Shown here in pieces: positions 21,001 through 32,611 of a stretch of 64,000 nt of DNA. Source of the DNA: Promethearchaeota archaeon (GTDB lineage Archaea; Asgardarchaeota; Lokiarchaeia; Sigyniarchaeales; SOKP01); NCBI GenBank assembly GCA_030599585.1, contig JAUVNS010000018.1, positions 25,253 through 89,252 on the forward strand. Reading direction: 5' to 3'. The position numbers were made by a program, and so were the translations under genes. How positions within the stretch are numbered: the stretch's first letter is position 1; every line of letters starts with the position of its first letter. The notes below the pieces were generated by a model. The model was not told the origin of the DNA. It saw nothing but the letters and a program-made list of their open reading frames with translations, and did not search any database.

Positions 21001-24000
21001 ATCAATAGGGAGTATTAGCCACACGGGAAGAGCGGTCGAATACTTGGTAGACACCAAAGCCAAAGACTTTGACCCAAACACCTACTATGCATTACAATCT
21101 CAAGCCCAAACTTTCTACGAACCATCTTTGATAGTTAAAAACTTAGAAGCTCAAATAGAAACGACTAAATACATAGCAAAAGCAATCGAGTCTTTAGGAC
21201 TAATTAAACAGACTATTTCCGATATAGAAGAAAAGGTAGAGACTTCATCAGAAATTTCAAGCATAAATTTAGATACATCAGCTATAAAGAGTCCAATACC
21301 CATCGAAGACCCAATCACATGGCTTCTAGATGCAGATTACGAAGGGGACACTTACAAAAGAATTCTTTTACCCGGTCTACTTAAGATGACAGTTCCTGAG
21401 TTTAAACTTCTTGTAATGCAAGAATACGACGTTCAATATGCGATAGATATATTCTACGGTCCGATTAGCTACGTGGATCCAACGACTTACGATATCGAAA
21501 TCGGCAGAAAAGTCGGCTCTTTAGATATCTACAGTGATACTACAATGGGAGAGATATTAGAAGAATTAAACATTGATCCAGAGAACCCTCTAGAACATTT
21601 CTTCGTAGTGCCTAATACTGAGAGCACCGAAAATAGGGAAAATCTAGAACAAATGGTAGATTCTCCAGCTTATACATTATTTAAAGATGTTTTAAGCAGG
21701 AATTTTGAAGGTCGTGATAACGTCATTAAAGCGTTCGGAACTCCAGAAAAAGTAGCGTTTCTTTCCAAATTTTACCAAGAAGTTATTGGTTACCTAAAAA
21801 CGGCTATGATGGACAAATTCGGTATATCTGAACAAAATTTATTCAGCGAGTCAAGCGGTTTGATAAGGGGTTATGTAACACAAGATTTGCATGGTGACGA
21901 AGTGAAAGCAATTTGGGAAGAATCAGGAGCAACGACTGACGATAAAGCTCGATTCAACAAAAAAATAAAAGAATATATTGAAGACAGGTTTCTAAGTTAC
22001 ATAAAGGAAGATGGTTTCAAAAAGGGAGATTTTGACGTTTTAATAGAACATAGAATGGATGAGACGATATTATTATTCCTACTAAACGAAATGGATACCG
22101 AGGACACAACTCCTGAAGGTTTATATTCCAAGTTTAAAGAATTCTATTACGAATTCGACTCAATAGTAAGGGATTTGCACTCTGTAACTTACGATCTCAC
22201 TAATCCAGCTGGCTTGAACCTATTTATGCAAAATTTCTTACAAACCTTTTACTCTACTGCGCTAAAAGGTAAACCCTCTCATTATACTAATGCAAAAACC
22301 TTTATTGGTGAAATTCCCGAAACTGGAGCTGTTAGACATGCTATTATCAAGCTTGCAAGAAGGTATGCTACGCACGGATTTCAAGATTTTGACATTGGTC
22401 ACGATATGCAATACACAGCTCTAGGTCCTAAGGAAGATATCAACGATATCATAAGCGATTTAAAAGCGAAAAAAGAGATTGATAACTTTGGAATAGATAT
22501 AACCACCAGTTTTACCCCATTATTAGTAAACCACCAAGACGTTCTTTATACTCTGTCCCCTAATTTTATCTCTAGTTTAGAAGTCAAAAATTCACGAAGA
22601 ATTGATAGTATACATGCCATATACGATATAGGAATAGATGTTTTTAGAACGATCGACATCGATAAATATTTCTCGTTCGGTCTTGATAAAGTTCCTGTTA
22701 GATACGAGGACTTTTATTTACCTGTTTCTTCTGCGATGATACCTTCAATATTTTATAATATTTTTGGTACCCGCGATCCAAATAACATGAGGCATCTCGG
22801 TTTTAATGCTGATGGAACTATCACTAAAACGGGTGATCGAAAAGGAGATAGCGAATCATTATTCTTTCTACAAGTAACTAAAGCTCTTAATAATTTTATT
22901 AGCACACAATTCTCGGGACTAGATAAAAACGCTTTAAAATCAAATCTTAAAGAAGTTTTCGACTTTCTTTCTTTAGAAGAACCTTTAACATCGCCTAGTT
23001 TACCAATTTTCGGAAACTTTTTGGATTTCGCCCTTGATGAGCTTGAAGCGCTCCACAACAAGATTAGAGTGATAGCTTCCAGCGTCTTCGGTTCTAATAA
23101 AGCTTCCAAACTAACAACAGAATTCTACGAGGAAGCGTTATCTAAATTTTCAGATAATCTTGATAAACTAGTTCAAGACTCGGATAATGGAATTCGATTA
23201 ATATGGCGCGAGACCTTACGATGTTTCCTTGATTCTGGAATAATTTTAAGACCCAATATGCTCCCTTCTAGAAGTACAGGTTTTTTCGTAATCGATAAAA
23301 ACGGTAATAGACATTACAAAGGAGATCCAGAACTAGACTACAATTTCTTTATAAATCCCGGAGTAAACTTCGTTTTTGTTCACGATAAAGCTGGGAATAA
23401 CGGTATTATGGCAGTAACTCTCGAAGATAATCTATTGCCCGATGGGATTTTAGAAGGATATCGAGATACTATTACTTCCGAAGTTATTGATGGAGTTTAC
23501 ATTTGCGACGAAGAAGGAACTTTCTTCCTTTCGCGCGTTGGATATGACAATCAAGAATTCTTTATCCGCGACGAGGAATGGTACAAAGCAGGAAACGCGA
23601 TTTCTGGAGCAATTGAAAGCAACCAGCTTACCTATTGGAGGTCCGAAACTAAAATTACCGGAAACAGTATGACTTGCTTTTTACAGAAAACTTTTGCGAC
23701 GGTAAACGCTATAGAAGCATATATTCCTCCAATTAACGCTAAATTGTCTGCGAGTAGTGGAATTTCAACTATTTCTCAAGAAAATAATTTAATTTTCAAC
23801 CCATTAATTTCAGGAAAACTAATTACAACTGAAACTTTTGTTAAGACTTACATAAGTTTATTAGGCTTAAGAAATTTCTTTGGTTCTTCCTCTAGAGGGG
23901 CTTATGCTAATACATTCATAGCCGACAAATTACAACTATACAACTTAAAATTTGATCCGCTTATCGGTGAATCCCCTAACCCATCGACTCTAAGAAGCAA

Positions 24001-25750
24001 AAACGATTTTGAAGGTACGCTTAACGGCTTGTTTAAAACCGAAGCAGACGTCTTAAAATTTCTATTCCTCAAAAAAGATGCCAGCAATAATATAATTCCT
24101 ATGCACGAGAGTGTCCTCACGGTAAAACAATGGTTTTCCTTTATATATGAAAAAATAGAGGCTTACAAAGAAGTTTCAGGAGCGGATAGGATTAACACGC
24201 TCATCGAAGAAGCAAAAACTTCTTTTACAGACAAATATGCTAACAATCCTTTTGACATTAATGCAGGAAAAGAAAAATTATTTTCAACTTCTACGGAGTT
24301 AAAAGCTGGTAAAATAGCTTTTGATACTATTTCTCAGCTCGTAGGTCATTTCACCTTAAGACTACTTTTCATGCGAATGATCAACTTCTATGGAAGTCCC
24401 AAGTCTTACAAGATTGATATAATAAGTAGCCCTAGCAAGGATGATATTGACACATATCTCAGACATTTCTCAATAACGCTTTCAACGCACACAAAGTTCG
24501 ATAAATTTTACAAACTTTCGCTATTCTTTTTAGATTCGTATATAAGCCTACCCGTCACCGAAGATATCAATAAGGAGGATGCAGTTGTGCGTTTTGGATA
24601 TTCTCCTATATCATTTGTGGACGAATCGTTTACCGTCAATAGTTTAAAGGATTTTGATAGAACAATTTCTTCGCAATTTAGAAGTATTTATGAAAATTAC
24701 ATAACAAGTCGATTTCAAGGATCGCTTGCAAACAGAAAGATACGACTATTTGTTGATTCAGGGCAAGAAATATTAAAAGTTTTAAAACCAGTATTAAAGA
24801 TAAAGGTTGACACTTTAGGTTTAACTAAAGCCGAAAAAGTAGAACTTTACAATAGACTTGTTATCGCAGCCGAAAGGGAGATTCTAGATTATACAAGACC
24901 TACAATAACTCATGATTCTGTAGATTATTGGAACATTCGTTACCAGATAGAGAATCTAATTATCGGAGACAAGTTCAAAGAAAATATTAATTTTTACCAA
25001 GTTGAATTTAATGGAAATCCGTTTGTATTAAAGTTATCAAAAGACGATTTCAACGGGAAAAACATAATAATTTTCAAAACTTTCATTAAAAAGTCAAGAG
25101 TTCGTTTTAGTTCTCAAGATTTTGATTACGAAGGATATAATTATAGGATTATCAAAGAGAAAGCACAAATTCTTAGGGAAGCAATCGTAAGCGCTTTAGG
25201 AGGAGAGATCGGGAAAGTGAAGGTTTATCCTCTTTACAGGCCGAATCAAAAAGTAGGCTATCAATTTTTGTTAAAAAATACAATTTTACCAGATGTCATT
25301 CCAACTGAAAGACATACTATTTCTGATAGTACAAAGAAAGACGCCAGATGTTTTGACATCGATTTAGAAGATCCCAACCTTCAATATAAATTAGAGCACA
25401 TTGCAAAACTTTCGCTTAGTTATATAAAATCTTCTCGTAGTGCCTCTTTCACAAGAGATTTTATGTTTTTAATTCTAAAAGATGATTTAAAAATGAATGG
25501 AGAAAGTAAACCAGCTTACGAATACAATCGCATGATTGGAGCTTTTGATCGACATCAATTTTATAGTCCAGACGAGATTCTCTCCACTGGTTCAAAGACA
25601 AAATTTTTCGCACCTTTAGAAATTACTGGTTTCGAATCTGGAATGACAATTAATCCCGAAATAATTAAACGATGGAATAAAGCAAACAGATTTTTAACTC
25701 TTCCGACAGCTGTGGTGTTCCGCGATTGGCAAAACTGGTGGTCTCGATAA
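2..25750 (+). CDS. Giant (>8,571 aa) putative extracellular/polymorphic-toxin-like protein, 5'-partial
   Basis: Frame is open from nt 2 (ACC TCA GCA GTA...) to TAA at 25748-25750, so the true start lies upstream of the window. D/E/N/Y-rich beta-type body with many N-x-S/T sequons; DxDxDG-like loops at 17015-18334; hydrophobic G/A-rich segments at ~18655-18772, ~20125-20290 and ~20700-20810; more basic C-terminal ~1,600 aa. aa ~6160-6930 are homologous to the ORF at 32644-36708. Confidence 0.9.
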   Translation, partial: TSAVGFNFNNAVFNDNYDYLVWFEGYTNGFTSELWVDGTNVQSFGSSPGSEFDGKFFTDINTIKVWLASDGGFNPEDKEVFLDFLKVLWVNQPVNISVKNANSINVTQSYSRTHTTSTPIDSGFYNDPYFGKNSLKFSIKNSITTPKFGRENGSVYADSILSDISLDFTVYPNSSYINFPLEHINVEGNNETKYNAEVLKDYDIYSANRFRNSAMDEIQIPLMTPIELDFGSADLDVLKDMDLEIALSLNFNRYYTASDFIWSLRFRLMYYNYSSGVWEDFKGMLRAENKGVERSVWGSTSDNFVDYLQNPQSNNFIPVSNENDITIKNPILIKSVSNNTISNGKMKLALMSYVIPSNFSIESGDNYFTYERADPQVPIEINQQVDVLECLFIGESVEIMYPDSAIKTNLPLDQNFRANLTLIDNLGEITAVIGKYIDRDSVAYEYPIFSYWITSSNELAFNSPMKYLFSSLEVEYIPEIELVFTNDKYYLPNSSIINHQNFTQPFLVTNLKDDSTVYGTYIHPDVDVGYYLQVDQYGTFVVNSSNFDGIPRGSVRFAKSNDTYFYQFSLSDELIYKYNLLNNASDLIGGTLQLELNAGFSDVVYSELSQVTCSDYKLVVDLHQLDTTTNTLKKIGQITTSLDQNLLYYHYYKIDLDLEETNYETNGRSILAETIARGSHYDLYVTVNSTIYNCFVDGNLFKGLYAHELLSADLQIDAQDSELRYNGEQVDQTFVEIPQESVILNKLDTATYAFDSNSLKYGFEFTVDELRTESAVINEANYEFSFESLALTLSGSYSDYSGILFADITYKAFKWDIDYISTLEPITFTFANDYTENITKFLELIVQYNAIPGYDMEKISETSGRLVLSEEAKDASLLKVYMYNFIEDKWDHVNFVTYDDYSGTNTFSYVVDRNFITFENYFNDTISGQFEAKIIFTIEEDVGDCFVSKISFDVNSLNANIYYSTPSTSHKVNPQVEFDVDLTEYYADSSIYLEEITLDLNFDGEIELDDAFIFSQYALLEENYNFYLRNEYLEYELFELEDNKLTVSRSDLDRLLFYDVENEKYVVRGALEYDWNCIIEMNLGSNSKLEILAALNLINYDLSVSYTSYEVRRISASEISVPFKLAAIYAPNYINTTDGITNLEDDEEIDVGIFRGFLRNVDTRQRLMLRQKLYYNFTDSQISNYNIVLDQEYTDCVLRFVSPYGYLHSPVDYLINQTYFEFISDSEVTSIEFYYHNGVNYAKKGDMEKDSIDATKFTFLWDDAQGDTGAITGDSVKIMFNLTDILGNNGQYEYSLLADFYPPQVSISLGDGAQNFESDLIATPDTAITFTSNEEDGVVSEHYSWAEDFESYDSGYMDHSYYPDDYNSTWTMDSLNMNNAFPTATISELWSGWTLDYDSQVTTSSFSNGDLSSNLIEATELYSPDQPSDFNVTGAGLTQYGNLETIDANYSIIDSADVATSYGDTQYIDSVTYTTGEYSLGALSDTETDDSNYYRSVSLNTIKLNLFFDPVVGGRDFYMDIHCEAWYGFSDPVTNYIQVNGQTVLTSDANDVIDQDNFLIEGVNSIRAYTIDRTGATYHALYYFKLVEKITEKVYVEAAPEYLDSVTYDNGAYQSGSYSDTQTDSRGSNYKSWGSVGIDMNLLFDPSLGGRDFNVSLDCLGTVAYNSLSYGFYVNNILQASATTSEYITFDGMVYSDVNSLELRIGDGSGNEYINLYYLKIEEIIEEVTVQVEIQGPEDTSVDFLKYSHKSNVSQTIDLDIWNWNTEQWYEIESVNNYASFDNDSFSLGQSSPYVNATNDVRIRYQGYWNQSSTYQIQIDRLALEYSYLPQGSPYADVSKTITDSFLDRYDSGFSNYQKLYEITIDFDYIFTKDSTLYDDFAQFTLDGSDFALSKDGYSHHFSDYFEYDSASRSGFDLMFNVSNGLLEIENMEYNFRFKSLDTSDHILLQQDFTVEFTDENELEVFKNFQDANFVIYNSYSFTTNSDGFTYYNTNGRTDKLEIIYKIKADDQWYTSIYSTSLAESGAKKFNVSQFMVDNLLIQFQDFEVEYLLTGNNSDLTINYLTLNCSTAAKYIQEYYRITYNVMGQISNWISFNSSAYTKLDDFGELPANFSVEYKVIDFAGNVGTATIYNTNYKNVMYSLEKSISLSDNEIDLNNPNNREISFENTGQFNNVNLLDVYINGFRYGTASLDTGYYKLNFGTGNSKETLLAYSDSLMTDYIYSNVNPLNHVSWEVREDDYFAVVKHVLVDGEIVIINPLSYNRTTQLDINHLYDRGFGLENLLRIRRAYYINSSNDAVCTMSFGIDYWIEKSGEISFPETSKLHLLYANPSEVKNGLIYFEHDVSLIGDQLSLTNADGFFVNFTMPSVYYDHTTIEKLTINFNDLMGNSFSKVYFDLDLREYFLENVKDQYEVDIFGLGKMMTIPLYIDMNDIRLSNPNKPFTLSFLESISFEIKDSPRWPGSFIQDIGNYTIMNLPYQRISISDIRLYNSISDSLDANNDGFVSSTVKFVAPDYYNCFGETEFNIKRLNIEFTDLQIFAYRELVEAGSVVDVEHSDLIEINYHWGDTISQVLLNDIYTLPVELINGSSGDTLSIGGAYWITKYEMDSLSGYIKYYYSRFEVPKGLGEYNVSFSSRGTPLFNITFLSAPSFTLNVTQESLSSTTPIYLENDQFEVEYGDPIILSGAILDNDEYIIEDEVYSYKYQEALDGETSHTLKLVSPFGDSDFIDTNNFSIYYINDKLEVLPLYTTLHNKRFLNDTILAYGKDPVISYVDNAFILNIYWEKSSTSFIRYDTNLLISYKVLIGQPLSPISFTSSDSYGNNKQQNLIEIPFAKYDIITRSWKTEGDFVNRFPINKLLLSEDVESTGATLEGLTFYEGEEITTGVIGLENIYVNKSYSSEFRLLDSSEYDWSIDSTGKLVVSGLNYTTTGDVFDVNYYACYPTEIPHSLTKDVSNVDYVKVRNGTGHEYLFVENIDYKLSEDGYSIFFVDLYNTILKSNNFTIYDTFEIGYHSSLAKKIDLSQNILLLLQDSEGNNIPIDGIPIDSLGMFDYEETLKIDSPFSIPVGGGKKIVHMELAYLPLNIYNKSSDILKNIDYLDGDIGNIYAVKESNAWAKPITVITIPEKVKLSLVENPLENIVINQKFYEEREYYFNLNPVEALEKGEEYTKVMIDALVKEDYEFTFRLSDLLEDKPINNSIVWLQVGFVPKTKTKFVNERATIDDLGISPYFESLGTEEITFLGPGTGTEKMFGKPLTYELDWYNTNFSSYGPHIWSFAKTNEFGEAKFDVSFDQDYLSDFSDVFGSIEGFDSIDDVVLYIRAFSSYFNWSEFAINTPNQYLCSESGNIFDGSTALDNYDFTNLALQDSTYVEGLITLHKKDIALGINDYFSYNLPDAGVGGSYDPLTIHLYVAEATPIPSMIGTTVESLTNIYTSSQLEPTAHNILNDDYSFYANIEFYTPSGSLAETMFMEINPEFNSGVITIDNETVIQILSKLGPGISTIKIQVAESEYYKPSPSITVPLEVRPSNWIKYGQKNTIIDLIDPYINAWGNAFNGEGFMPFESNYPHLIGTIWIEPNFEGTGEEKEQSIQDYVEIGLDCITESSVPIDEVPEGVSFKVDPINTHMAIIKESFPLRENIMLRPGNREGVMMFDVGLGPEDAFIMGLECELNLTFNINYNNFDIYEDDRQVDIYLLDLRLEENPSSSSNKTLWSVYNDEFNSDGTGFGLSKDNSIQTETGVVSLGGTENEVDYGLEVEFTYNPEESIYTIDSESELFDLFKLDDITPLEVSWLNGSEEITLTKDTDWQIGSSLSEIEFLDNSLPDNYSDFIVVYKFDFDFGANNFANITLGPRGGNNANESWILFSLPDGFLPPSEDSLSFMYTRFNQTFVGTGSATQYTLEYGVQGATEWDDDLFIIYNEGELGLLSRDAPSGRPRVEINKPLDEVFNVKYGIRSEYLLGYGFQKVGEVYSDSVRLMYNNESSSPIIDSAGPKNTLSLSDPSLYISLDDSSKETILELYNVPLLYSPEVNFTFALDPIVMDLVDTFTTEIVNSLEITFYYVASGGYGSYYTDTILLPLNYTELSLDLQSGSYFLNYNKDLQGIYEAFGTGNLDVYVAISQVGNGSNYIPYVILEEFDYLCDEHLLEMYDRMPLDGDGDLDVKAVINTPHYVQLFSKPFVDDIYGGSPFDLLDNSQITVGLDDMVYSSLVSLQTDGVGGYAFEYLGSQETLPINAENYYQIPNLGLFTDAYNLDEVVYQDGYVDLFYGNGIEVSGAYDFDLAINMEYDSLTVDDYEATISGGVVTSWEDYYNITDQFLTTDEIAVSDTVLYHQLFDLTSDIIELDDLNEILGNITGAYFGVKLPDDVSISYLRTIGSPYTYDLSVQGFPIGSYIDGTYCKVKTSGTTQDFDLREDSEIMNRTTYYSLEFASNGSKYIVFTKSINDVSNFAVNDKIMVDYWAYYTFVEGFDYEIVEDPLDPYTSVIDWAYQISAIDSYTMHPDFIINSSFSVDFSALEWEEIDNNYIHDGSDEFTFQPHIDTNTTVLYSGDVTEDFSVLNIVPDNQFNETDLFTNIYVDIWDGENEDTIFTYEYLYQPLGHGYIIQDVNVSFYFTINYTAIEEFFQQYYPDHVLLDDSYTYIQLGYESTQLRYTMSNTPFNYDYVGSEHTTYHIVLTIGEDAPIYSYQSAFNDYILKIENNFVYFNDSRFVDDGYIANNTNIKLEYKYKLQPGLLERKHFLSVIYPWSNAFNSIVDDAISGDSDITYREKYRKLSGSSIISPFEYSLSINDTYRLYLSYRLNQREYFEEKFEIDYRSGELDFYYLSNAFDNYVSEYSKEEVVVYYFDENNQMQFLDRASFIVDNVTHKITLKADGNPIVSINPIVEFYVGFSPAVSDERFNAYEYTYNPSLGMNDTLELTYWNVTHGERFDVIPNLNAYNYINEPRTTFTNFVSHATQVAAFLEEEETLVFDLAGEIGWYNDALLDGIQNGEYLSIYFHASFENYYCLEGISVELNDSTGVIPGFTQFITIEELVMWDFDIKIDLPFEPNNDLQTIAITPIFADSDEYSEDNILGIPHFELLEWDEDLVEGDIDRYIPIQLETELITDSPSLEIAYLFNENLQYLALPEGVEFNWSVDDDFLGEGHYTLNIPEIFVNPDDTSQNATFEDGDVILFRYNIPAQKLVKIGIKEIYFNKKPYNYDQLSVLSEFVLVNANETDSDSYNYDEFTAPYNYNASLRLTPFDDEFTSSYKSVAIDLNISSLEAFAIDGFVDFSHILFSAPNPNYELTVSQVVIVQELEGLSDFVEFFDSRVWQFTEFEKVTSSPVPEKDNYSLELPNDPIYYRDADEGKWLEFIKIYDENYNYYSAGISGDEYQLLWSPATKNFTWNPSFDRFQEYWGMQIELPQLIQSNTTLYFEYCANVSWSNEIDLDYENIHFDSFELIYNYDYLLTPRFEDWYGELIDNSNDGFDYEIEQFYSETFVVYTETNEYSHAFETEYDFEDDFLNLTLYSIVGLYANFTEKIIDDDNVNYDVVFDIPAKNITITDLISGDGLLNEFDAITVVLNFTHGLDSTKTKLKFSDSFNQTYLDDMDATFYDFVSGSFEYATKSGDYLFVERAETIASDSTSFVSIDYTRNSDLSINLNLDKYNTSALFDNFELYLDPYNVIYEADADMDGRRDFKHEIDIDKNGRVDVIKFGVESETDSNEIIWHTAINDFLGDETEYDLKSRPRETTKWFDLDDAMFTTSTSLFTIFFAELDYWGKKYVEQTYATDQSVESSFYSIMVDDDYDGTANTQYTYEKSNFVQYTYVINNETTILAAKPQNMFTYIYASMAEWIGTLVTGGRVDPIFNEQLTPEMIESGSYPGDFHWLAPDIRETLTQTYKKYSIVSTRLYIENSVSEKITVNNWENGTLLETRIYQDLFKDDSIDLGIDLSQTVTNLETGQQQDIPLDFIPAIQTEQNSYAIWDDDSNVPGKFESLTSVDLESSSSDSSNLFERDIRIVIPSRINPYNDYKKSVSLKTSGTSDMRLNITGIHITPADGKVYYSSDKESFKLNGGDAAKTEGSYFYYDSDQNGFMETVYVLSPVKGAGDDAYYEVVAIGFNYDGKHDFVPYSKTEIGSPIENLNEFKDVLSHEVYQTGGNIFVFSKLASDTDRLFPPEDRDGYEVKDNIFEIRKLITQSAQNARFSELFYETRHREFNSLWEVFGEKFERDLSEQVAISITAGIAAAIARVFTSDLGAMAVYFGIYTSLSLISNDVKAREAEAKIRSQTFYSEDADSNQPRFLNNKYPKDDIWGDSMPAALSGHPGTYYAEVRGGQTGNEYLGYVVAAPPNDDRCWGGSNNFLDFIGSNFDLAWTDTLPQDVNPDIMTGLDFDYHNLDFLMVASELYSYNDQEHYTYLEGQELADTMLVLEPVYEDYDFEQLLSYEDYELEDFVKLYLTGPEIVLRIIQNYDSYKLRQNTLGYLEHEITEATNGSLNSIRPIISDEAPQYVFAQEDGTSPLSPLFSPLIISSARYDQLSDSRKFGYIFVDIASSETANTKGIDSTDLLDEERAFYSAKIPLADMYGAFNYPIESVILHKVVDKEITSRTLNPSDYEVPEKVQNLYFTHPIKDLMGDEDYLAHSMTKTYSEETEVHYICEIKFAKIIPDDGNLSEENQRNLLAQTTMYPILDYFDQYTFAATTAKMIGEIAYTEIITVQSTSRSAIIVAMAGAAAATQKKLSEEAVGMIAQVGSSVWSTAVSTAPSSIFYSTIIQIASGATRIVAQTVAEMFEEIIVDGFIETYFQNSARMLGWTEGVGNLISTLMTTIRETNMFGIFNLGGQDTSSQGANSLDVNLNAQTEQELQHSSLTAELSQLIAERENDQSFTLEEFLKENKEGVRSIMSEFGLVPSRHETILKMAGIISSGIFAGLSMLVPGLSFAGFSLYGFSPMIKHLGGKIGGQGTGSTTTMRAALQNARKSEISQDIDAKIIKQMEAKSGPIDAIFRSKSDQAATVKSIGSISHTGRAVEYLVDTKAKDFDPNTYYALQSQAQTFYEPSLIVKNLEAQIETTKYIAKAIESLGLIKQTISDIEEKVETSSEISSINLDTSAIKSPIPIEDPITWLLDADYEGDTYKRILLPGLLKMTVPEFKLLVMQEYDVQYAIDIFYGPISYVDPTTYDIEIGRKVGSLDIYSDTTMGEILEELNIDPENPLEHFFVVPNTESTENRENLEQMVDSPAYTLFKDVLSRNFEGRDNVIKAFGTPEKVAFLSKFYQEVIGYLKTAMMDKFGISEQNLFSESSGLIRGYVTQDLHGDEVKAIWEESGATTDDKARFNKKIKEYIEDRFLSYIKEDGFKKGDFDVLIEHRMDETILLFLLNEMDTEDTTPEGLYSKFKEFYYEFDSIVRDLHSVTYDLTNPAGLNLFMQNFLQTFYSTALKGKPSHYTNAKTFIGEIPETGAVRHAIIKLARRYATHGFQDFDIGHDMQYTALGPKEDINDIISDLKAKKEIDNFGIDITTSFTPLLVNHQDVLYTLSPNFISSLEVKNSRRIDSIHAIYDIGIDVFRTIDIDKYFSFGLDKVPVRYEDFYLPVSSAMIPSIFYNIFGTRDPNNMRHLGFNADGTITKTGDRKGDSESLFFLQVTKALNNFISTQFSGLDKNALKSNLKEVFDFLSLEEPLTSPSLPIFGNFLDFALDELEALHNKIRVIASSVFGSNKASKLTTEFYEEALSKFSDNLDKLVQDSDNGIRLIWRETLRCFLDSGIILRPNMLPSRSTGFFVIDKNGNRHYKGDPELDYNFFINPGVNFVFVHDKAGNNGIMAVTLEDNLLPDGILEGYRDTITSEVIDGVYICDEEGTFFLSRVGYDNQEFFIRDEEWYKAGNAISGAIESNQLTYWRSETKITGNSMTCFLQKTFATVNAIEAYIPPINAKLSASSGISTISQENNLIFNPLISGKLITTETFVKTYISLLGLRNFFGSSSRGAYANTFIADKLQLYNLKFDPLIGESPNPSTLRSKNDFEGTLNGLFKTEADVLKFLFLKKDASNNIIPMHESVLTVKQWFSFIYEKIEAYKEVSGADRINTLIEEAKTSFTDKYANNPFDINAGKEKLFSTSTELKAGKIAFDTISQLVGHFTLRLLFMRMINFYGSPKSYKIDIISSPSKDDIDTYLRHFSITLSTHTKFDKFYKLSLFFLDSYISLPVTEDINKEDAVVRFGYSPISFVDESFTVNSLKDFDRTISSQFRSIYENYITSRFQGSLANRKIRLFVDSGQEILKVLKPVLKIKVDTLGLTKAEKVELYNRLVIAAEREILDYTRPTITHDSVDYWNIRYQIENLIIGDKFKENINFYQVEFNGNPFVLKLSKDDFNGKNIIIFKTFIKKSRVRFSSQDFDYEGYNYRIIKEKAQILREAIVSALGGEIGKVKVYPLYRPNQKVGYQFLLKNTILPDVIPTERHTISDSTKKDARCFDIDLEDPNLQYKLEHIAKLSLSYIKSSRSASFTRDFMFLILKDDLKMNGESKPAYEYNRMIGAFDRHQFYSPDEILSTGSKTKFFAPLEITGFESGMTINPEIIKRWNKANRFLTLPTAVVFRDWQNWWSR
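4400..5170 (+). repeat. Internal ~135-aa tandem domain duplication within the giant protein
   Basis: YIDSVTYTTGEYSLGALSDTETD...NLFFDPVVGGRDFYMDIHC...LYYFKL versus YLDSVTYDNGAYQSGSYSDTQTD...NLLFDPSLGGRDFNVSLDC...LYYLKI. Confidence 0.8.
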
Positions 25751-25828: not shown

Positions 25829-26902
25829 TTAAGAACAATCTAACTTGTTGTTTTCCAGTGCTAAGACTTTTAGCGATTTCATTTCTTTTATAGATTTCGG
25901 TAATCTAGTTAGATGGTTATTATTTAATGCTAGAACTTCTAAGTTCTTTAACTTTTTTATTGATTCAGGAATACATGTAAGCTTGTTTATGCTTAGCCCT
26001 AGTCGCTTAAGGTTAAATAATTCCGTTACGATCTCAGGGAAGATTTTAAAATTGTTGACGCCTAAATAAAGTAATTCGAGAGATTTTAAAGAAGATATTT
26101 CGCGAGGAAGAGTTTCCAACTGGTTACCGCTTAGGTTTAACTCTCGAAGGTTTTTTAGCTGCCCAATCTCTTTTGGGACATACAAAAATACATTCTCGTC
26201 TAAATAGAGCTTCCTTAAAGATGTTAATCTTGTTATTTCTAAAGGAAAACGTGTTAAATGGCAATGCCTTAACTCCAATCCAATTAACTTATTTTTTTCA
26301 AATTCAATCGCAAATTGCGGATTGCCGTATTGGTTATCGAACCATAATTCTTCTTCGATTTTTACTTCAGCTTTGGAAAGTATTTGCAATTTATTTAAAA
26401 TTAAGACTTCCTCATTTTCTAAAAATGTTTCAATTAACTTTTCTTTTACATATTTTCTTACATAACCATTTCCAATTAGATATCGGACAATAATTGGATG
26501 ACCGCTTTCAAACCTTTTTACGATTTCTTCTTCAAATACTGCTTTTGCTACTTGATCTCCAACGTCAGTTAAAGCCTTTAACATAGGAAACGCTAAAGTT
26601 CTATGCAATAGTCGCGTATCGTAATTAAACTCGTACCACGCTTGAAGGTTAGAACAGTGTGCCCAAAACTCTTCTTCTGGTAGTATTTCAAATTCTTCTA
26701 AAGCTCTTTCTTCTAACGATTGATCCAATAGTCTTTCTGCCTCGTCAATAGACATAATATCTTCAAAATTTTCAATATTATTCTCGTCTATATAAATTAA
26801 TAGAAATTTACAGTGTCTAAACAGTTTGTCTTTTATATAAATATTGGTCTTACCGTTTTCTAGTCGTAATTTTAAAAATTCATTTATTTGAAATTCTTTC
26901 AT
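25829..26902 (-). CDS. 'HCSNLQAW'-domain protein with C-terminal leucine-rich repeats
   Basis: N-terminal LKLRLENGKTNIYI...CKFLL...EEEFWAHCSNLQAW...RLLHRTLAFPMLKAL domain; about six 23-aa LRRs (LxxLxLxxNxLxxLPxxIxxL). Confidence 0.9.
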   Translation of the reverse strand: MKEFQINEFLKLRLENGKTNIYIKDKLFRHCKFLLIYIDENNIENFEDIMSIDEAERLLDQSLEERALEEFEILPEEEFWAHCSNLQAWYEFNYDTRLLHRTLAFPMLKALTDVGDQVAKAVFEEEIVKRFESGHPIIVRYLIGNGYVRKYVKEKLIETFLENEEVLILNKLQILSKAEVKIEEELWFDNQYGNPQFAIEFEKNKLIGLELRHCHLTRFPLEITRLTSLRKLYLDENVFLYVPKEIGQLKNLRELNLSGNQLETLPREISSLKSLELLYLGVNNFKIFPEIVTELFNLKRLGLSINKLTCIPESIKKLKNLEVLALNNNHLTRLPKSIKEMKSLKVLALENNKLDCS

Positions 26903-27331
26903 AAAACTTTAAGTCTCAATTTTATATCCTATTAATTTAACGAAAACGGGCTTATATAAACTTTTAGAGATAAACAAATTTTTAAACCAATTAGATAATG
27001 ACTCCCCATTAATTAAAAAGAAATGTATTTCACTTTTTTCTTACTATTTTGTTGTTTGATTAATTCTGCTTAATAAAGGAAAGGTTAGAAGGGTAACGCG
27101 TTGAAAATTGGTATCCTTTGTTGATAAATTCACGATAAAAAACAATTTTTATTGTTATTTTTTTCTTTTTGACACAAGTAAAACTTGAAGAAAAGCTTGG
27201 TTTTAAATCAATATCATAATCAAATAGGTTTGGGAATTTTAGAAGAATTAAAGAATTTTTGATGAGATTTAAAAATTATTATACTATATACTTTATTATA
27301 TTGTTAAGACATTATTTAATTATCATTGTAA

Positions 27332-27628
27332 TTGGGGAGAGTTTATCTGGAACCAGATAAGGAAACTTTGATAAAACTGGTTAAACAAGGCATTGAAATG
27401 TTAGCAGAAAGGAACATTAGTAGCATTCTAGTCCTATCATCATATAAAATAAATTCAGTGTTAAAGGATAACTATGGCGTGAATATTAAGGTTGATAGAA
27501 TTGGAAGAATTCTCTCAAGCGTAGCTAAAAATAATAAACTCAAGAGGCTAGGAACTCAGATCCCAAAATACCAATTGCAAATATCGAAAGTTGGAAGACT
27601 TCGGTATCCCGAATTGTTGTCTTCGTAA
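27332..27628 (+). CDS. Small basic hypothetical protein, possibly winged-helix DNA-binding
   Basis: 98-aa ORF with TTG start, K/R-rich, pattern of helices followed by a beta hairpin; isolated by AT-rich intergenic DNA. Confidence 0.6.
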   Translation: MGRVYLEPDKETLIKLVKQGIEMLAERNISSILVLSSYKINSVLKDNYGVNIKVDRIGRILSSVAKNNKLKRLGTQIPKYQLQISKVGRLRYPELLSS

Positions 27629-27703
27629 AGTGAGATAAATATTTCACAAAATCTATTTATATAATCTATCTGCTTGAAATTTATAAAAAAAGTAAAAATC
27701 CTA

Positions 27704-29083
27704 CTATTTCTTAATATTTCGGAAGTCAGGAATTATTTTTTGTAATCTATCAATTAACTTTTCAAGTTCGACAAAATCGCTATTAAAGCTATCTAATTCT
27801 GAAATTAAATTATCGAAATTGGTAGTAATGGTTATTTCAAAGGGATGATTGATAGCACTTATTCCTTTTAACATGTCGATAGAGAGACTTTCTATTAGAT
27901 TCGTTAAATTTGAGATTTGGTTTCCTGATGATTCAATTTTCTCTCTTGTGTTTGTATCTAATTTGGTTAATTCGTATAGTTTATTGATGGATTCATCGAG
28001 ATTATTTTTTATAGAATTAGCGATATCACTGATACTACGCTCTAAAGACTCATTAATTTCACTTTTTAAGATTTCACTGATCTCTTGTGTATTCGATTTT
28101 AATTCTTCTTGCCCCTCAAGACGTTTTCTTATGTATCCCTCAACTTTTTCCTTATATTCATCTATCCTTTCTTTAAATTTTAGATCAATCCATTGTTCTA
28201 CTTTTTCGAAACCACTATTAATCGCAGAATCCATTTCTGAAAGGGAGTCATTTATTTTATGAAGACCTATTAAAGCTCCATCATTAAAATCTGTAGACCA
28301 TAATTCTAATTCAGATTTGTAATTGGTTAAGACTAAGCTAGATAAATTCTGTAGTCCTTTTTTAAACCCGTCTATAACCGGATTAATGTTAGGGTATTTT
28401 ATGTCGATTTTCGTATCAGTTTGACCTATTGATGTTGGAATTTCTTGAAGATCACCTGGAATTCCTTCAATCATCTCAAATTTCTCGGGTATTATATTTG
28501 GATCCTTCGCTTGACCATATTCCACAAGCTCTCGAACCCAATTGAAGAAATCTAGGGATTTTGGTGGCTCGATTTCGTTTTTTACTCTAACTATTCCACT
28601 TTTTTCTCCTAATTTGTGATTTTTTAATTGGAATACTTCTAATCCTAAATGATCGGCTTTTTTAAGTTGAGAGGGATCAAATACAATTCCAAATGCTAAG
28701 GGGTTCTGTTCATTTTGAAAATATAAATGGTTCTTTTTATCAACATCTGAAAAGAAAAATGAATCGCTGTTAGGGTGTGAATGATACCAACCCACAACGG
28801 AATAGGTCTCCTCTTTAACTTCTTCTTTTAGCTGCTCAAGTGATTTATGAATCTTTTCTGAAAATCCTAATTCAACTTGGTCTCCGTGCGTAATAGGAAT
28901 GGCTTTGATCACGTCAATGTCATCGCTGTCAGGTTTTTTGATACCCAAACAAAATCCTATAACCTGTTCATTATCAAACATAACGTTTGCAAATCGTAAC
29001 GCATGAGTAAGAATATCTTTATACACACTCATTCGTATGAACACTTTACCATTTTCTCTGGTTTCAACTGTGCTCTCATTCAT
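27704..29083 (-). CDS. MPN/JAB (Mov34) domain protein with long C-terminal coiled coil
   Basis: VVGWYHSHPNSDSFFFSDVD JAMM-type motif, NEQVIGFCLG, AFGIVFDP; ~230-aa heptad-rich tail. Confidence 0.88.
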   Translation of the reverse strand: MNESTVETRENGKVFIRMSVYKDILTHALRFANVMFDNEQVIGFCLGIKKPDSDDIDVIKAIPITHGDQVELGFSEKIHKSLEQLKEEVKEETYSVVGWYHSHPNSDSFFFSDVDKKNHLYFQNEQNPLAFGIVFDPSQLKKADHLGLEVFQLKNHKLGEKSGIVRVKNEIEPPKSLDFFNWVRELVEYGQAKDPNIIPEKFEMIEGIPGDLQEIPTSIGQTDTKIDIKYPNINPVIDGFKKGLQNLSSLVLTNYKSELELWSTDFNDGALIGLHKINDSLSEMDSAINSGFEKVEQWIDLKFKERIDEYKEKVEGYIRKRLEGQEELKSNTQEISEILKSEINESLERSISDIANSIKNNLDESINKLYELTKLDTNTREKIESSGNQISNLTNLIESLSIDMLKGISAINHPFEITITTNFDNLISELDSFNSDFVELEKLIDRLQKIIPDFRNIKK

Positions 29084-29085
29084 CT

Positions 29086-30540
29086 CTATTCATTACCTCC
29101 TTGTTCGAGTTCTTTGATTTTTAATAGTAATTCTTTTTTTTCAGATTCCAATTTTTCAATTTTTTCAAAGATAGGTGCTTTTGTTCCTTCTAAAATTAAA
29201 ACTGCAGCTTTTAAGTTTGTCACAAACTTTTGAGAATTTTTTTGTAGGTCGCTAATTGAATTTTTCATTAAACCATACTTCTTCGAAGTAATATCTGAAG
29301 TTTCTTTTTGCATATTTTTTATCTTGTCGAGTGTCGAATCTTTTATCGAGGCTATTTTATCCGATAATGTATTTAATGAATTCTCTAATATTTCGAGATT
29401 CTCGAGATTTTTAGTTAAATTCCCATTGAGGTTCATTATTTTACTGTTCCATTCGTCGTAATCTTTTGAGAAATCATTTTTCAATGCTTCAAATTTCTCT
29501 TTAAAAGAAATTTTTAGTTTCTCTTGAACAAATTCCTTTATCTCTCTCAAGATTTTTCCTATTTCGTCATGGTATTCATCGATTTGGTCTAAAAAGTCGT
29601 CAACATAGCCTTCTGCGCTAAATAATTCAGAATTTAAATCGTCCTTGTATTTCCTCTGGATTTTATTAATTCCAGCGTTCACTAAATTTTTTAATTGAGA
29701 TAAATTATTCCTCATTTCGATGTTGTTATTCTCAATTTCTCCTGAAATGTTTTTAGCTATCGAATTTAAATAGGAAATTAAGGGTGATAAAGATAAATCT
29801 ACAAAGTTAGCAAGACCAATTTGAACGGATTCAATAATTTTTTGTTGATCTATTTCAGGTTGCTTAAACCTTAATTGACTCAATTCAGGGACTTGAACAT
29901 CGCCAAAAATATCCGCTGTTTCGTTTTCTTCCATAATCGGGGGTTTATTTGTATACACACCATTAATCAGTTCTACAAGCTTAAAATAATAATCCACATC
30001 ATTAGGTGGTTCAACAATTGCTTTCACTTCGTGAACATTCGAACTCCTAATGTCTGTAGGATTCGTTAATCTAAGTGCTCTAAATCCCGGGTCATCAGAG
30101 CTTTCCAAATATGCGTGGTCAAAAACTAGTGCTATACCACTTGGATTCAATTCATTTTGCCAGCCGAATTGATTTTTTACATCCGTAGGAGAAAAGAATA
30201 TTTTGTGCTGGAAAAGATTAGGATGACTATGATACCATCCTACCATAAACCAGTTTTTTTCTAAATACATCGAATTAGCTTTTTCAAAGAAAATATAATC
30301 ATTTATTGAAAATTCGACTTCTACACTACTTCCGTGAGAGATAGGTACGGAATCTTCAATTACGACGTTTTTAAACTTCTTATCTTCGCCCTCTTCGTGA
30401 TGTCCAATGAGTACTCCCATCACTTCGATACACTGATTATGATTTCTCGCTTTGTTCCCAAAGCGTAATACGTGTAGCACCATTTTGTAATAAGCAAGTG
30501 GTTTTATCTTTACAACACTACTATCTACATCTTTTCCCAA
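29086..30540 (-). CDS. MPN+/JAMM metalloprotease-like protein with long C-terminal coiled coil
   Basis: CIEVMGVLIG (catalytic Glu as in Rpn11 EVMG), VGWYHSHP...FSPTD, ALVFD; coiled-coil tail; 2-nt gap to its paralog. Confidence 0.9.
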   Translation of the reverse strand: MGKDVDSSVVKIKPLAYYKMVLHVLRFGNKARNHNQCIEVMGVLIGHHEEGEDKKFKNVVIEDSVPISHGSSVEVEFSINDYIFFEKANSMYLEKNWFMVGWYHSHPNLFQHKIFFSPTDVKNQFGWQNELNPSGIALVFDHAYLESSDDPGFRALRLTNPTDIRSSNVHEVKAIVEPPNDVDYYFKLVELINGVYTNKPPIMEENETADIFGDVQVPELSQLRFKQPEIDQQKIIESVQIGLANFVDLSLSPLISYLNSIAKNISGEIENNNIEMRNNLSQLKNLVNAGINKIQRKYKDDLNSELFSAEGYVDDFLDQIDEYHDEIGKILREIKEFVQEKLKISFKEKFEALKNDFSKDYDEWNSKIMNLNGNLTKNLENLEILENSLNTLSDKIASIKDSTLDKIKNMQKETSDITSKKYGLMKNSISDLQKNSQKFVTNLKAAVLILEGTKAPIFEKIEKLESEKKELLLKIKELEQGGNE

Positions 30541-30787
30541 TTTTTATCACTTCAGCTTTTAAGAACTTAATGAATTTATTCTACAATATATTTGTTTTTA
30601 ACAATTATAATTTTGAGCAGTTAATATAAATGTATAGTGGATGATAATTTATTCTTCTTTTTCATTTATATCTTTTTTTAGATACTTAATTTTTAAAACA
30701 ATCTTAGTCAACACCTAATTAAAAATAAGAATACTACATCTTTTTGTAAGAACGGTTGAAAGGATTTTATAGAAGAAAAGATTTAGT

Positions 30788-31465
30788 TTAATGGGGTAGT
30801 GGTTTCCCGCAATAAGGACAGAATTTCCAGCCAATATCTTTCCCACAACTAGGACAAAAAGTGGAAGTCCCGGTACTAGGGCTATCAGGTGAGGTAGGAC
30901 CTCCGCCCGCTCCTTTTGGGATTGAAGGTAAACTTCTTGCAGTTTTTAGAGTCGATGGTTCTTGTTGACCCTCCTTGGCTTTTTTTTCCTCCTTAATATA
31001 CTTCATTCTCTCTTGAAATGCCTGGCGTTTTTCGTCTTCTAATTCTTGATTTGATTTCATACCCTCTTCTTTTACCCATCCCGTAGCTGCTGGTCTCTTT
31101 ATTTCGCTTTCTGGAACTTTATCTAATTCAACTTCTTTAGCTTCAGAAATCGGAGCTGCAACTTTTTTTTCTTCGCTCCTGGTAATAGCTTGCTTAGTTA
31201 ATGCGTGCACAGTCTTCATAATTTGGTGAGGATTTATATTAGGAATTGCTACTGTTCTCAGCACCCATCCAACCATGATATTTTGGTTAGGAAAACCAGA
31301 AGCGCTCATATCTTCCTCTTTGAAAACATAGGAATCAATAATATCATTTCTGCCTTTCAGTAAACGGATGGCCCATTTATCGTTTATAAGTCCTAATTGA
31401 ATTCTATACGAAGTTCCAGAAATTCCTAGTTGACTACTAAGAGGTTCGAATCCTTTTTCTGAAAT
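30788..31465 (-). CDS. Hypothetical protein with C-terminal zinc ribbon; probable ATT start upstream of the track ATG
   Basis: Frame stays open 52 codons upstream of 31309 (SEKGFEPLSSQLGISGTSYRIQLGLINDKWAIRLLKG...), preceded by GCTGGTG (RBS-like); C-terminal CPSC...CPYC. Confidence 0.75.
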   Translation of the reverse strand: MSEKGFEPLSSQLGISGTSYRIQLGLINDKWAIRLLKGRNDIIDSYVFKEEDMSASGFPNQNIMVGWVLRTVAIPNINPHQIMKTVHALTKQAITRSEEKKVAAPISEAKEVELDKVPESEIKRPAATGWVKEEGMKSNQELEDEKRQAFQERMKYIKEEKKAKEGQQEPSTLKTARSLPSIPKGAGGGPTSPDSPSTGTSTFCPSCGKDIGWKFCPYCGKPLPH

Positions 31466-31810
31466 AATTACACCAGCTCAATTTAATTGTGATATCTAAC
31501 ATTCTTATAAGATTTAGATGAGACTTTGGTTTGCTATTCATAATAAATTGTTTTTATACCCCTATAAATTAATTTATTATTTTAAATAGATATTTATTTC
31601 AAATGTTGTTGAATTTATATCTTTTACTATATTATAACATATTTCGATGTTATAATTTCATTAATTATTTTTAAGGTTAGGAAAAGAAGGTGTTGAGCTG
31701 TTTACAAGATAAAGAGAGGATTATTTAGAATCTCTACAAATAAAAGGATTGTCTGAGAAATAACGAAGTGAGAAAAATTATTAAATTCACCTAAGGGAAT
31801 TTAAATCTGG

Positions 31811-32611
31811 TCACTTATAATAACCAGATATCTTAAACAAAAAACTGCTTTCCCCTAATCTGTGCTTATATACTTTAAAAATTTCATGGACTTTATTTTT
31901 AAAATACTCATTCTTATTATAATATAATTTATCAATGAGAATAGTCGTCCAATAACTAATATCAAGGTATTTCTTATTAAATGAATCTCCAAACAAGACC
32001 AATAGATCGAATAACCTTATTTTTGGGTGTTCTATGAGAAAAAAAATATCATCATCACAAAGATCGTATTTCTCTCTATCATATGTTAAAATTTCATCCA
32101 GAACGGATTCATTAATTTCTTTATCTAATAAATTTTCTTTAATGGTTTCAAGCAACAATGAAATTTGTTCATAATTTAAAAACGAAAAATATTGGTTAAA
32201 CACCAAAAAAATAATAACTGAAATGTTTTGAGTCTCTTCAACCTTTTTAAAAATCTCTTCTCTAAATACCTTTCTTGCCGTTTTATCCCCCAAAAGCATT
32301 AAATCCTTCAGTAAAGGAAAGGCTAGAGAGTAATGAAGTAACCGAGAATCATATCCACTTTCGACCCACGCTTGAAGATTCGAACAATGCCCCCAAAACT
32401 CATCACGGGCGGAGATATAAAAACGAGAATCTTGCACAATTTCCCCTAAACTCTCGATATAGTCAAGATTATCTAAGGTTTTGATCTGATCTGAAGATAA
32501 ATTTATAACTAACTTCTTGCACTGTGAAAAAAGAACATTGTTCAAGTAAATATTAGTTCTTTTGTTTTCTAACCGTAAAGAAATTAATTTATTTATCTTA
32601 TATTCATCCAT
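31811..32611 (-). CDS. 'HCSNLQAW'-domain protein with helical tail; candidate immunity protein
   Basis: ISLRLENKRTNIYL...CKKLV...DEFWGHCSNLQAW...RLLHYSLAFPLLKDL, paralogous to 25829-26902; begins 32 nt downstream of the GIY-YIG ORF on the same strand. Confidence 0.85.
   Translation of the reverse strand: MDEYKINKLISLRLENKRTNIYLNNVLFSQCKKLVINLSSDQIKTLDNLDYIESLGEIVQDSRFYISARDEFWGHCSNLQAWVESGYDSRLLHYSLAFPLLKDLMLLGDKTARKVFREEIFKKVEETQNISVIIFLVFNQYFSFLNYEQISLLLETIKENLLDKEINESVLDEILTYDREKYDLCDDDIFFLIEHPKIRLFDLLVLFGDSFNKKYLDISYWTTILIDKLYYNKNEYFKNKVHEIFKVYKHRLGESSFLFKISGYYK

Follow-up and report, generated by a model that had tools for sequence, protein, structure and literature searches.

We analyzed a 64,000-nucleotide stretch of contig JAUVNS010000018.1 (hereafter, the window) from a member of the Lokiarchaeia (Promethearchaeota archaeon, assembly GCA_030599585.1, positions 25,253 to 89,252), in which two related genes, P0001 and P0002, lie directly beside the 3′ ends of long trunk genes. 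One of the trunk genes is a giant that enters the window with its 3′ part; the other, P0003, is a much shorter open reading frame (ORF). P0001 and P0002 share an N-terminal domain with the motif HCSNLQAW (hereafter, the N-domain). Contigs (C), loci (L) and genomes (G) are referred to by our own labels. The features in question are the following:

2..25750, plus strand: window part of the giant, its 3′ 8,582 codons; the gene starts outside the window
about 19799-20731, plus strand: conserved pre-tail core of the giant
about 20960 to 25750, plus strand: long divergent tail of the giant
25829-26902, minus strand: P0001, 357 amino acids (aa), with the N-domain at 26453-26902 and a leucine-rich repeat (LRR) tail at about 25832-26290
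31811-32611, minus strand: P0002, 266 aa, with the N-domain at 32177-32611 and a unique tail of ~120 aa
32644-36708, minus strand: P0003, 1354 aa, with a GTG start, a trunk fragment at 34282-36708 and a tip at 32644-34281

P0001 converges on the giant with 78 nt between the two stop codons, and P0002 lies downstream of P0003 in the same orientation, with 32 nt between the P0003 stop and the P0002 start. Both genes and both gaps are as described in an initial annotation made from the sequence alone, which proposed that the HCSNLQAW genes form an immunity family with a constant domain and variable binding tails. The constant domain and its Cys and His-Cys motifs are confirmed: over ~150 aa, the N-termini of P0001 and P0002 are identical in 63 of 148 residues (43%, E 6e-37) and have C31, EFW[AG]HCSNLQAW and RLLH..LAFP.LK in common. 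The tails differ, again as annotated. The P0001 tail consists of LRRs (Pfam LRR_8, E 3.8e-17); the P0002 tail has no Pfam or NCBIfam match, contains no LRR and has no homologue among any of the ORF sets compared. P0002 has no transmembrane (TM)-like segment, and neither protein has a Ras, Roc or Arf match in Pfam.

The window giant measures 13,902 aa on the whole contig. Two further giants, of 13,847 aa (contig C24) and 14,550 aa (contig C47), are encoded in the genome, and all three are homologous, with the similarity ending ahead of their C-terminal tails. The two closest paralogues are 45-79% identical up to residues 12306/13108 and unrelated beyond, and they carry different partner genes as well as unrelated tails; in the window giant the paralogue similarity ends at about residue 12306, and the core profile match falls in the window part. 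A 286-aa LRR-only protein is encoded 78 nt downstream of the 13,847-aa giant. The N-terminal region, which lies outside the window, contains Laminin_G_3 and six TM-like segments at residues 650-880. No Pfam domain is present in the last 8,500 residues of the giants or in the window part of the window giant, and no secretion or delivery domain is found among the Pfam matches to the trunk parts scanned. An Atlas search with the C-terminal 699 aa of this giant's tail in the window returned no usable match. On contig C8 (148621-148803), a short trunk-core match interrupted by a TAG stop probably represents what is left of a decayed trunk gene.

Over its residues 1-809, P0003 matches the 14,550-aa giant (residues 13234-14030) with 68% aa identity; beyond this stretch the two proteins diverge. 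The relation between the trunks proposed in the initial annotation therefore holds. The DNA homology to this giant (78.6% over 738 nt in the part tested) reaches back to 29 nt before the GTG start and stops there. P0003 is therefore a 5′-truncated orphan copy of the 3′ end of a giant, with a different tip. The tip (545 aa) comprises a CxxC zinc-ribbon-like motif, a putative GIY-YIG-type core and then helical modules, and the pattern IY..YxGxT..H..E..WI..GG is invariant across nine homologues. Atlas matches that are listed with a Pfam family all fall into GIY-YIG clusters (score 0.83), a lead only. Pfam GIY-YIG is matched by only one of the nine members of the tip family (E 0.055), P0003 itself has no Pfam match, and PDB sequence searches with the tip alone and with its homologue profile yielded no nuclease; the best PDB profile match is a 'CAP repeat' (E 2.7e-5) in the helical part. 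What was initially annotated as a nuclease ORF is thus, on the motif and the Atlas lead, a probable GIY-YIG-type nuclease that the Pfam and PDB searches do not corroborate. P0002 occupies the slot expected of an immunity gene, after a truncated trunk-plus-tip cassette.

The initial annotation proposed an enrichment test of the genes directly 3′ of trunk homologues, with the caveat that the adjacency could be chance. We surveyed trunk ends in two samples. For the first, 40 relatives were searched with two trunk-end queries and the N-domain; among the resulting 18 ends (14 fetched and four from the genome itself), a gene with the N-domain and/or a Pfam-confirmed LRR is the first downstream ORF in nine and the second in two more. 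For the second, a profile of the pre-tail core was searched against 135 genomes from the taxonomic family and gave matches in 53, and we took the best 60 loci not yet examined, leaving out about 45 weaker rows; the trunk stop lies inside the fetched locus in 57 of the 60. The survey counts refer to mechanical ORF calls (at least 60 aa) in loci that are related to each other and on contigs that are fragmentary. In 17 of the 57 loci the N-domain is present in the first ORF after the trunk (13 convergent with the trunk and four co-oriented; 13 of the 17 with a Pfam LRR), and in 16 this ORF is LRR-only (15 co-oriented, one convergent). It is an Arf-like GTPase in one locus (L059), a small ORF (125-220 aa) without Pfam match in 21, and the continuation of a split trunk in two. 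In one of the latter, L037, the split trunk is followed by a convergent gene with the N-domain and LRRs, a 34th case beside the 33 in which an N-domain or LRR gene takes the first slot.

Among the second-downstream ORFs only 1 of 37 has an LRR; small GTPases are found there at four loci, and the rest are mostly housekeeping genes (proteasome, S10, SecY, ATP synthase). In the genome itself, some 33 of 4,448 non-overlapping, crudely called ORFs (about 0.7%) form the background: about 25 LRR ORFs (97 Pfam matches, merged) and 11 N-domain ORFs, with three in both sets. Compared with this background, 33 of 57 does not agree with chance placement: the adjacency to trunks is strongly non-random and conserved. 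The gaps between trunk and partner range from -151 to +198 nt, the pairing spans at least nine genera, and 74 of 75 first-downstream proteins are without a TM-like segment. These features also bear on the idea that abundant mobile LRR and N-domain genes gather in the same variable islands as the giant ends without any direct link to them. Most copies do live apart from trunks: 39 of 40 other N-domain loci sampled in genus relatives have no trunk-like neighbour (none of the 40 has a trunk core, and only L110 abuts a trunk-tail fragment), and 20 of the 25 LRR genes of the genome have ordinary neighbours. However, the enrichment is confined to the first ORF and gives way to housekeeping genes, the gaps are tiny, each class of partner has its own orientation, and the pairing is kept across genera. 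Mere hitch-hiking is accordingly disfavoured, and we consider it very improbable.

One candidate case of adjacency was withdrawn. Contig C47 has an N-domain gene 2.8 kb away from the 14,550-aa giant, and this copy had been taken as a third adjacent case. It sits in a NUDIX/NadA block, and 12 relatives keep its orthologue in the same block, while the ±4 kb fetched around it contain no match to the trunk core. Because this synteny is kept without a trunk core, the C47 copy is no longer counted, and it falls on the side of hitch-hiking. Near the NadA-linked gene with N-domain and LRRs, two or three genes away, stands a free-standing ORF of 83-99 aa (L092, L095, L102-L104, L107, L108, L116 and L120), ~50% identical to residues ~470-552 of the L048 trunk tail; it may represent a small domain common to giants and stand-alone proteins. 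A 96-aa ORF occupies the matching place on C47 (L001:13946-14236). On contig C32 (162450-178874), tandem ORFs of 2642 aa and 2481 aa are followed 4 nt beyond by a convergent 339-aa LRR gene. Neither large ORF is related to trunks, so this gene was rejected as a member of the trunk system; long genes and LRR genes may here have become paired a second time, independently.

Tails and their partners vary jointly. In genome G016, the trunks of two loci (L007 and L010) share 88% identity as far as the junction, beyond which the tips differ and so do the LRR genes that follow. Conversely, a tip found at three loci is accompanied at each by the same 286-aa LRR protein (65-66% identity). Across the survey, resemblance between two tips tends to go along with resemblance between their neighbours (odds ratio 8.9, for pairs that are not independent). 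No LRR is present in any of the 72 tips scanned; therefore, partner and tail are never fused. The initial description of variable tips beside constant-domain genes agrees with this joint change. Two families of small ORFs without Pfam match also stand directly after trunk tips and follow the tip type, one of 113-143 aa (L008:6577-7306, L012:5456-5887, L016:5991-6356 and L013:6533-6898, with a tandem duplicate in L008) and one of 180 aa with 67% identity (L003:8850-9392 and L014:4743-5285); both are typical immunity-gene candidates.

Several tips resemble nucleases. LAGLIDADG_3 is matched in the tips of L014 and L045 (E 1.3e-10 and 7.6e-7, above cut-off), and the tip of L065 has a weak match to a phage BECR nuclease; a weak S24 hint is also present among the tips. 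Judged by these matches, the LAGLIDADG_3 tips and the GIY-YIG-like tip of P0003 show the use of putative homing-endonuclease-type nucleases as tips.

A different pattern is seen in the trunks with the longest tails. In the long class (14 loci, with about 1,930-2,130 aa between core and stop) the partner has the N-domain in 12 of 14 cases, as opposed to five among the other 40 intact trunks, with the two split ones set aside. The window giant, with 1,949 aa from core to stop, belongs to the long class, and the convergent position of P0001 is therefore the conserved state. The initial annotation was right that the LRR copy is not co-oriented with the giant; 12 of 14 long trunks are arranged in this way. 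The long tails that precede P0001-type partners are collinear across genera, extend about 1,950 aa from the core and share 22-37% identity. The best full-length matches of P0001 among the partners are likewise convergent genes with N-domain and LRRs, led by the one at L070 (39%), and the L070 trunk also has the tip closest to that of the window giant (37%).

Long tails that are collinear and conserved in length across genera, together with a conserved partner in a conserved convergent arrangement, are what one would expect if the LRR proteins, with or without the N-domain, were cytoplasmic adaptors or chaperones docking on the C-terminal region of the giant, with no toxin involved. Such adaptors could couple the giant to assembly, to anchoring or to signalling by Ras-like GTPases, as if a ROCO protein had been divided among several genes. 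The scarcity of toxin-like domains in the tails agrees with this possibility, as do the GTPase genes found first or second downstream at L050, L059, L062 and L073. At three of these four loci the Ras/Arf-like GTPase gene directly follows an N-domain or LRR partner. Against adaptors stand the truncated orphan cassettes with their own partner (P0003 and L009b) and the abrupt swaps of tip plus partner between near-identical trunks, both of which are hallmarks of conflict systems, along with the nuclease-type tips and the small unrelated ORFs that hold the slot in 21 of 57 loci, as expected of diverse immunity genes. On balance, we regard an adaptor, chaperone or signalling function as a serious but somewhat less likely alternative to immunity.

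To characterize the N-domain beyond trunk ends, we searched for its homologues. The domain has no Pfam or NCBIfam family match, and it is present in 31 of 41 related genomes searched. The genome itself has 11 N-domain ORFs, with LRR tails in three (Pfam matches for two), tails that appear TPR-like by eye in five and other tails in three. A word-indexed search retrieved 807 homologues of 196-625 aa, the best 120 of which contain LRRs (50), a Ras/Rab/Arf-type GTPase (39), TPRs (6), MgtE_N (1) or nothing recognizable (24); among the matches listed, all named sources are Asgard archaea. The GTPase fusions in these 39 proteins count further in favour of adaptors. At E≤0.001, an exhaustive search produced 2,459 sequences, each representing a cluster formed at 50% identity, in agreement with the initial characterization of the family as very numerous. 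The N-domain is found in N-terminal, internal or C-terminal position, with up to seven matched stretches per protein. Apart from a duplicated segment on contigs C12 (about 10776-15588) and C49 (1-3980), which includes an N-domain gene with a TPR-like tail and its neighbours, the 11 N-domain genes of the genome have no recurrent neighbours. The protein identity of 80-91% between the two copies of the segment points to a recent segmental duplication within the family.

Trunk-adjacent N-domains are not scattered at random in the family. In a tree of 73 N-domains the trunk-adjacent label changes 10 times, compared with a mean of 21 after shuffling (none of 500 shuffles was as low), and well-supported branches force at least three changes. 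Therefore, trunk-adjacent N-domains are clustered with at least three origins, and the tree suggests that the N-domain was repeatedly recruited to genes beside trunks. The closest relative of the P0001 N-domain (74%) belongs to the trunk-adjacent gene at L037.

An AlphaFold model of the N-domain built from 107 sequences (pLDDT 81) predicts three short strands, a poorly predicted linker, a helix with the motif and HEAT-like helices. It supersedes an earlier model from 41 sequences (pLDDT 68), with which a Foldseek search was empty. Foldseek with the newer model gave no match at E≤0.001, and a VIA fold search against 48,161 PDB chains gave a best Z of 2.8, with weak rows for HEAT-like, PX and Hfq-like fragments. 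The modeled domain thus appears to have no detectable fold relative in the PDB, which is not proof of a new fold. C31, S84, N85, W89 and Y94 are invariant in the 107 sequences, while H82, C83 and H100 are at least 90% conserved. Such conservation, in a fold that leaves room for a new activity, would be compatible with an enzyme or metal-binding processing module, in which a site of C31, H82-C83 and H100 acts on the tail and the LRR recruits the substrate. But no protease or transferase family was matched, LRR-only partners fill the same slot without the N-domain in 16 of 57 loci, and the HEAT-like C-terminal half, with several copies possible per protein, suggests a structural module. Of all the readings weighed here, a processing enzyme seems to us the most remote.

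The domain architectures allow one more interpretation, in which the giants would be no weapons at all but surface or membrane-spanning sensors or adhesins, and LRR/HCSNLQAW adaptors read their fast-evolving tails in the cytoplasm and feed small-GTPase signalling. The connection to signalling is drawn because the same N-domain is fused elsewhere to Ras/Rab/Arf-like GTPases. We consider such a sensor system unlikely.

The pairing of giant tails with the next genes is repeated, position-specific and cassette-like, and a direct functional link between them is for these reasons very likely. We tentatively favour the reading in which the gene after the variable tail encodes a tail-specific binder with an immunity or inhibitor role, because of the orphan cassette, the nuclease-type tips, the soluble partners that are never fused to tails, and the precedent of Imm-LRR and URI proteins in bacteria; by analogy with these, an immunity role is plausible. 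P0001 and P0002 would be soluble cytoplasmic proteins that bind the variable C-terminal ends of membrane-anchored giants. The giants behave like polymorphic toxins: the trunk is conserved, tail and next gene are exchanged jointly as a cassette, and 5′-truncated orphan copies combine a trunk end, a tip and the next gene. The repeat tail of the partner (LRR in P0001, the unique tail in P0002) would bind and neutralize the cognate tip; P0002 would thereby neutralize the probable GIY-YIG nuclease of P0003. The outcome might be protection of the producer and its kin, as proposed for bacterial Imm-LRR. The N-domain would not be the specificity element, but a common Asgard module (a predicted three-stranded beta-meander, motif helix and HEAT-like hairpin) that is found in some of the partners and, elsewhere, in proteins with LRRs, TPRs or Ras-like GTPase domains. 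The adjacency and its conservation, the exchange as cassettes and the orphan structure are observed; binding, inhibition and toxicity of the tails are steps that we infer.

A number of observations weigh against the immunity reading. No Pfam domain is present in 65 of 69 tips of relatives (54 of 57 and 11 of 12 in the two sets), nor in the tips of the three giants of the genome itself, and the long collinear tails look more like a conserved functional region than like a swapped toxin. One tip family (35-37% identity) is paired either with an N-domain and LRR partner or with an LRR-only partner. Thirteen of the 17 N-domain partners are convergent and hence not co-transcribed with the trunk. At L003 and L005 a small ORF stands between the tail and the N-domain gene; the one at L003 changes in step with the C-terminal ~150 aa of its tip and is, at that locus, the better candidate for immunity. 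A pair made up of a 196-aa gene and an 808-aa N-domain gene, which follows the trunk at L005, stands without a trunk in this genome, where the 808-aa copy (contig C34) is a near-identical orthologue of the trunk-adjacent gene in the relative. Homologues of the P0003 tip elsewhere are free-standing proteins of 420-750 aa, and none of nine such loci has an N-domain ORF within 1.5 kb. In 4 of 57 loci one of the two genes after the tail encodes a Ras/Arf-like GTPase, an arrangement more in keeping with signalling than with immunity. The N-terminus of the giant has no obvious signal peptide and, to our knowledge, no archaeal delivery route has been described.

The proposal of an HCSNLQAW immunity family is thus only partly right. 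HCSNLQAW genes do abut trunks in a non-random and conserved manner, but the N-domain is not the defining feature of the slot, which also holds LRR-only genes (16 of 57) and small unrelated ORFs (21 of 57): the recurring element is the LRR partner, and the N-domain is a widespread Asgard module.

Between P0001 and P0002 the window contains three further genes, which complete a minus-strand run of P0003, P0002, a 173-aa ORF, two JAB/MPN genes and P0001:

27704-29083 and 29086-30540, minus strand: tandem JAB/MPN genes, 459 and 484 aa (Pfam JAB, E 4.5e-11 and 1.5e-13)
30788-31309, minus strand: 173-aa ORF with a C-terminal zinc-ribbon-like motif, Pfam matches just under cut-offs

The two JAB/MPN proteins are paralogues, with 27% identity across 410 aa, and both end in long helical C-terminal regions. 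The tandem genes were rejected as recurrent partners of N-domain genes, since their paralogues in the genome are not beside such genes. The 173-aa zinc-ribbon-like ORF has no paralogue in the genome.

LRR proteins are far more numerous in Asgard archaea than in other prokaryotes. According to the available part of a 2026 preprint, almost all of those in Asgard archaea are of unknown function (10.64898/2026.10.28.762692). The partner rule, an LRR ORF, often with HCSNLQAW, after the variable end of a giant, gives a subset of these proteins a testable partner, suggests a tail-binding and possibly immunity role for some of the many uncharacterized Asgard repeat proteins, and points to a polymorphic-toxin-like or self/non-self system in the Lokiarchaeia. 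The analysis also defines an uncurated domain family with thousands of members and no detectable fold relative in the PDB. A literature search covering partial texts without supplements, in which the motif string was not a search term, found no description of the trunk family, the partner rule or the N-domain.

The system shares individual traits with several known ones. Giant genes are numerous in Asgard archaea, and truncated fragments homologous to some of them occur at other places in the genome, as stated in the available text of Wu et al. (2022, PMC8813620). The 'Aloposons' of the same text are Heimdallarchaeal elements with upstream ParA-like genes; they are likened to the trunk family by description only, and no LRR partner rule is described for them in that portion (PMC8813620). 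LRRs and Ras-like GTPases are combined in ROCO/LRR-Roc-COR GTPases and Asgard small-GTPase modules; the part of Liu et al. (2020, 10.1101/2020.10.19.343400) available for comparison does not mention the N-domain. The N-domain precedes either LRRs or a GTPase, and GTPase genes sometimes follow the partner gene; unlike ROCO proteins, P0001 and P0002 have neither a GTPase nor a COR domain.

The immunity genes of pore-forming colicins lie downstream of the colicin gene on the opposite strand and encode small membrane proteins. P0001-type partners are likewise convergent, separately transcribed and placed directly after the giant gene, but are soluble repeat proteins. Ribonuclease inhibitor, a soluble cytoplasmic LRR horseshoe, binds RNase A and neutralizes the nuclease by tight binding. 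The comparison with it is made at the level of the LRR repeats only, and P0002, the partner beside the nuclease-like tip, has no LRR.

The closest parallels are found in bacterial polymorphic toxin systems, for which the accessible portion of Zhang et al. (2012, PMC3482391) lists Imm-LRR, HEAT and ankyrin immunity proteins as well as URI (GIY-YIG-fold) toxins. In contrast to these, the host is archaeal (Lokiarchaeia) and we infer toxicity and immunity; the giants have no recognizable secretion or delivery domain, pre-toxin motif or HINT peptidase, and their trunk is free of Pfam domains over the last 8,500 residues; many partners are convergent and have an additional Asgard-specific N-domain; and the long tails are homologous, though very divergent. 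An LRR gene that stands beside the tip and co-varies with it, as in Imm-LRR, is found in P0001 and its locus family, but not in P0002. Some tips are putatively of nuclease type, including a probable GIY-YIG/URI fold, and LRR proteins are one of the classes of immunity protein in that listing (PMC3482391). As in CdiA/CdiI and Rhs systems, a very long conserved trunk ends in non-homologous C-terminal tips; and, as in polymorphic toxin systems at large, the next gene changes with the tip, and a 5′-truncated orphan carries a new tip together with its own next gene.

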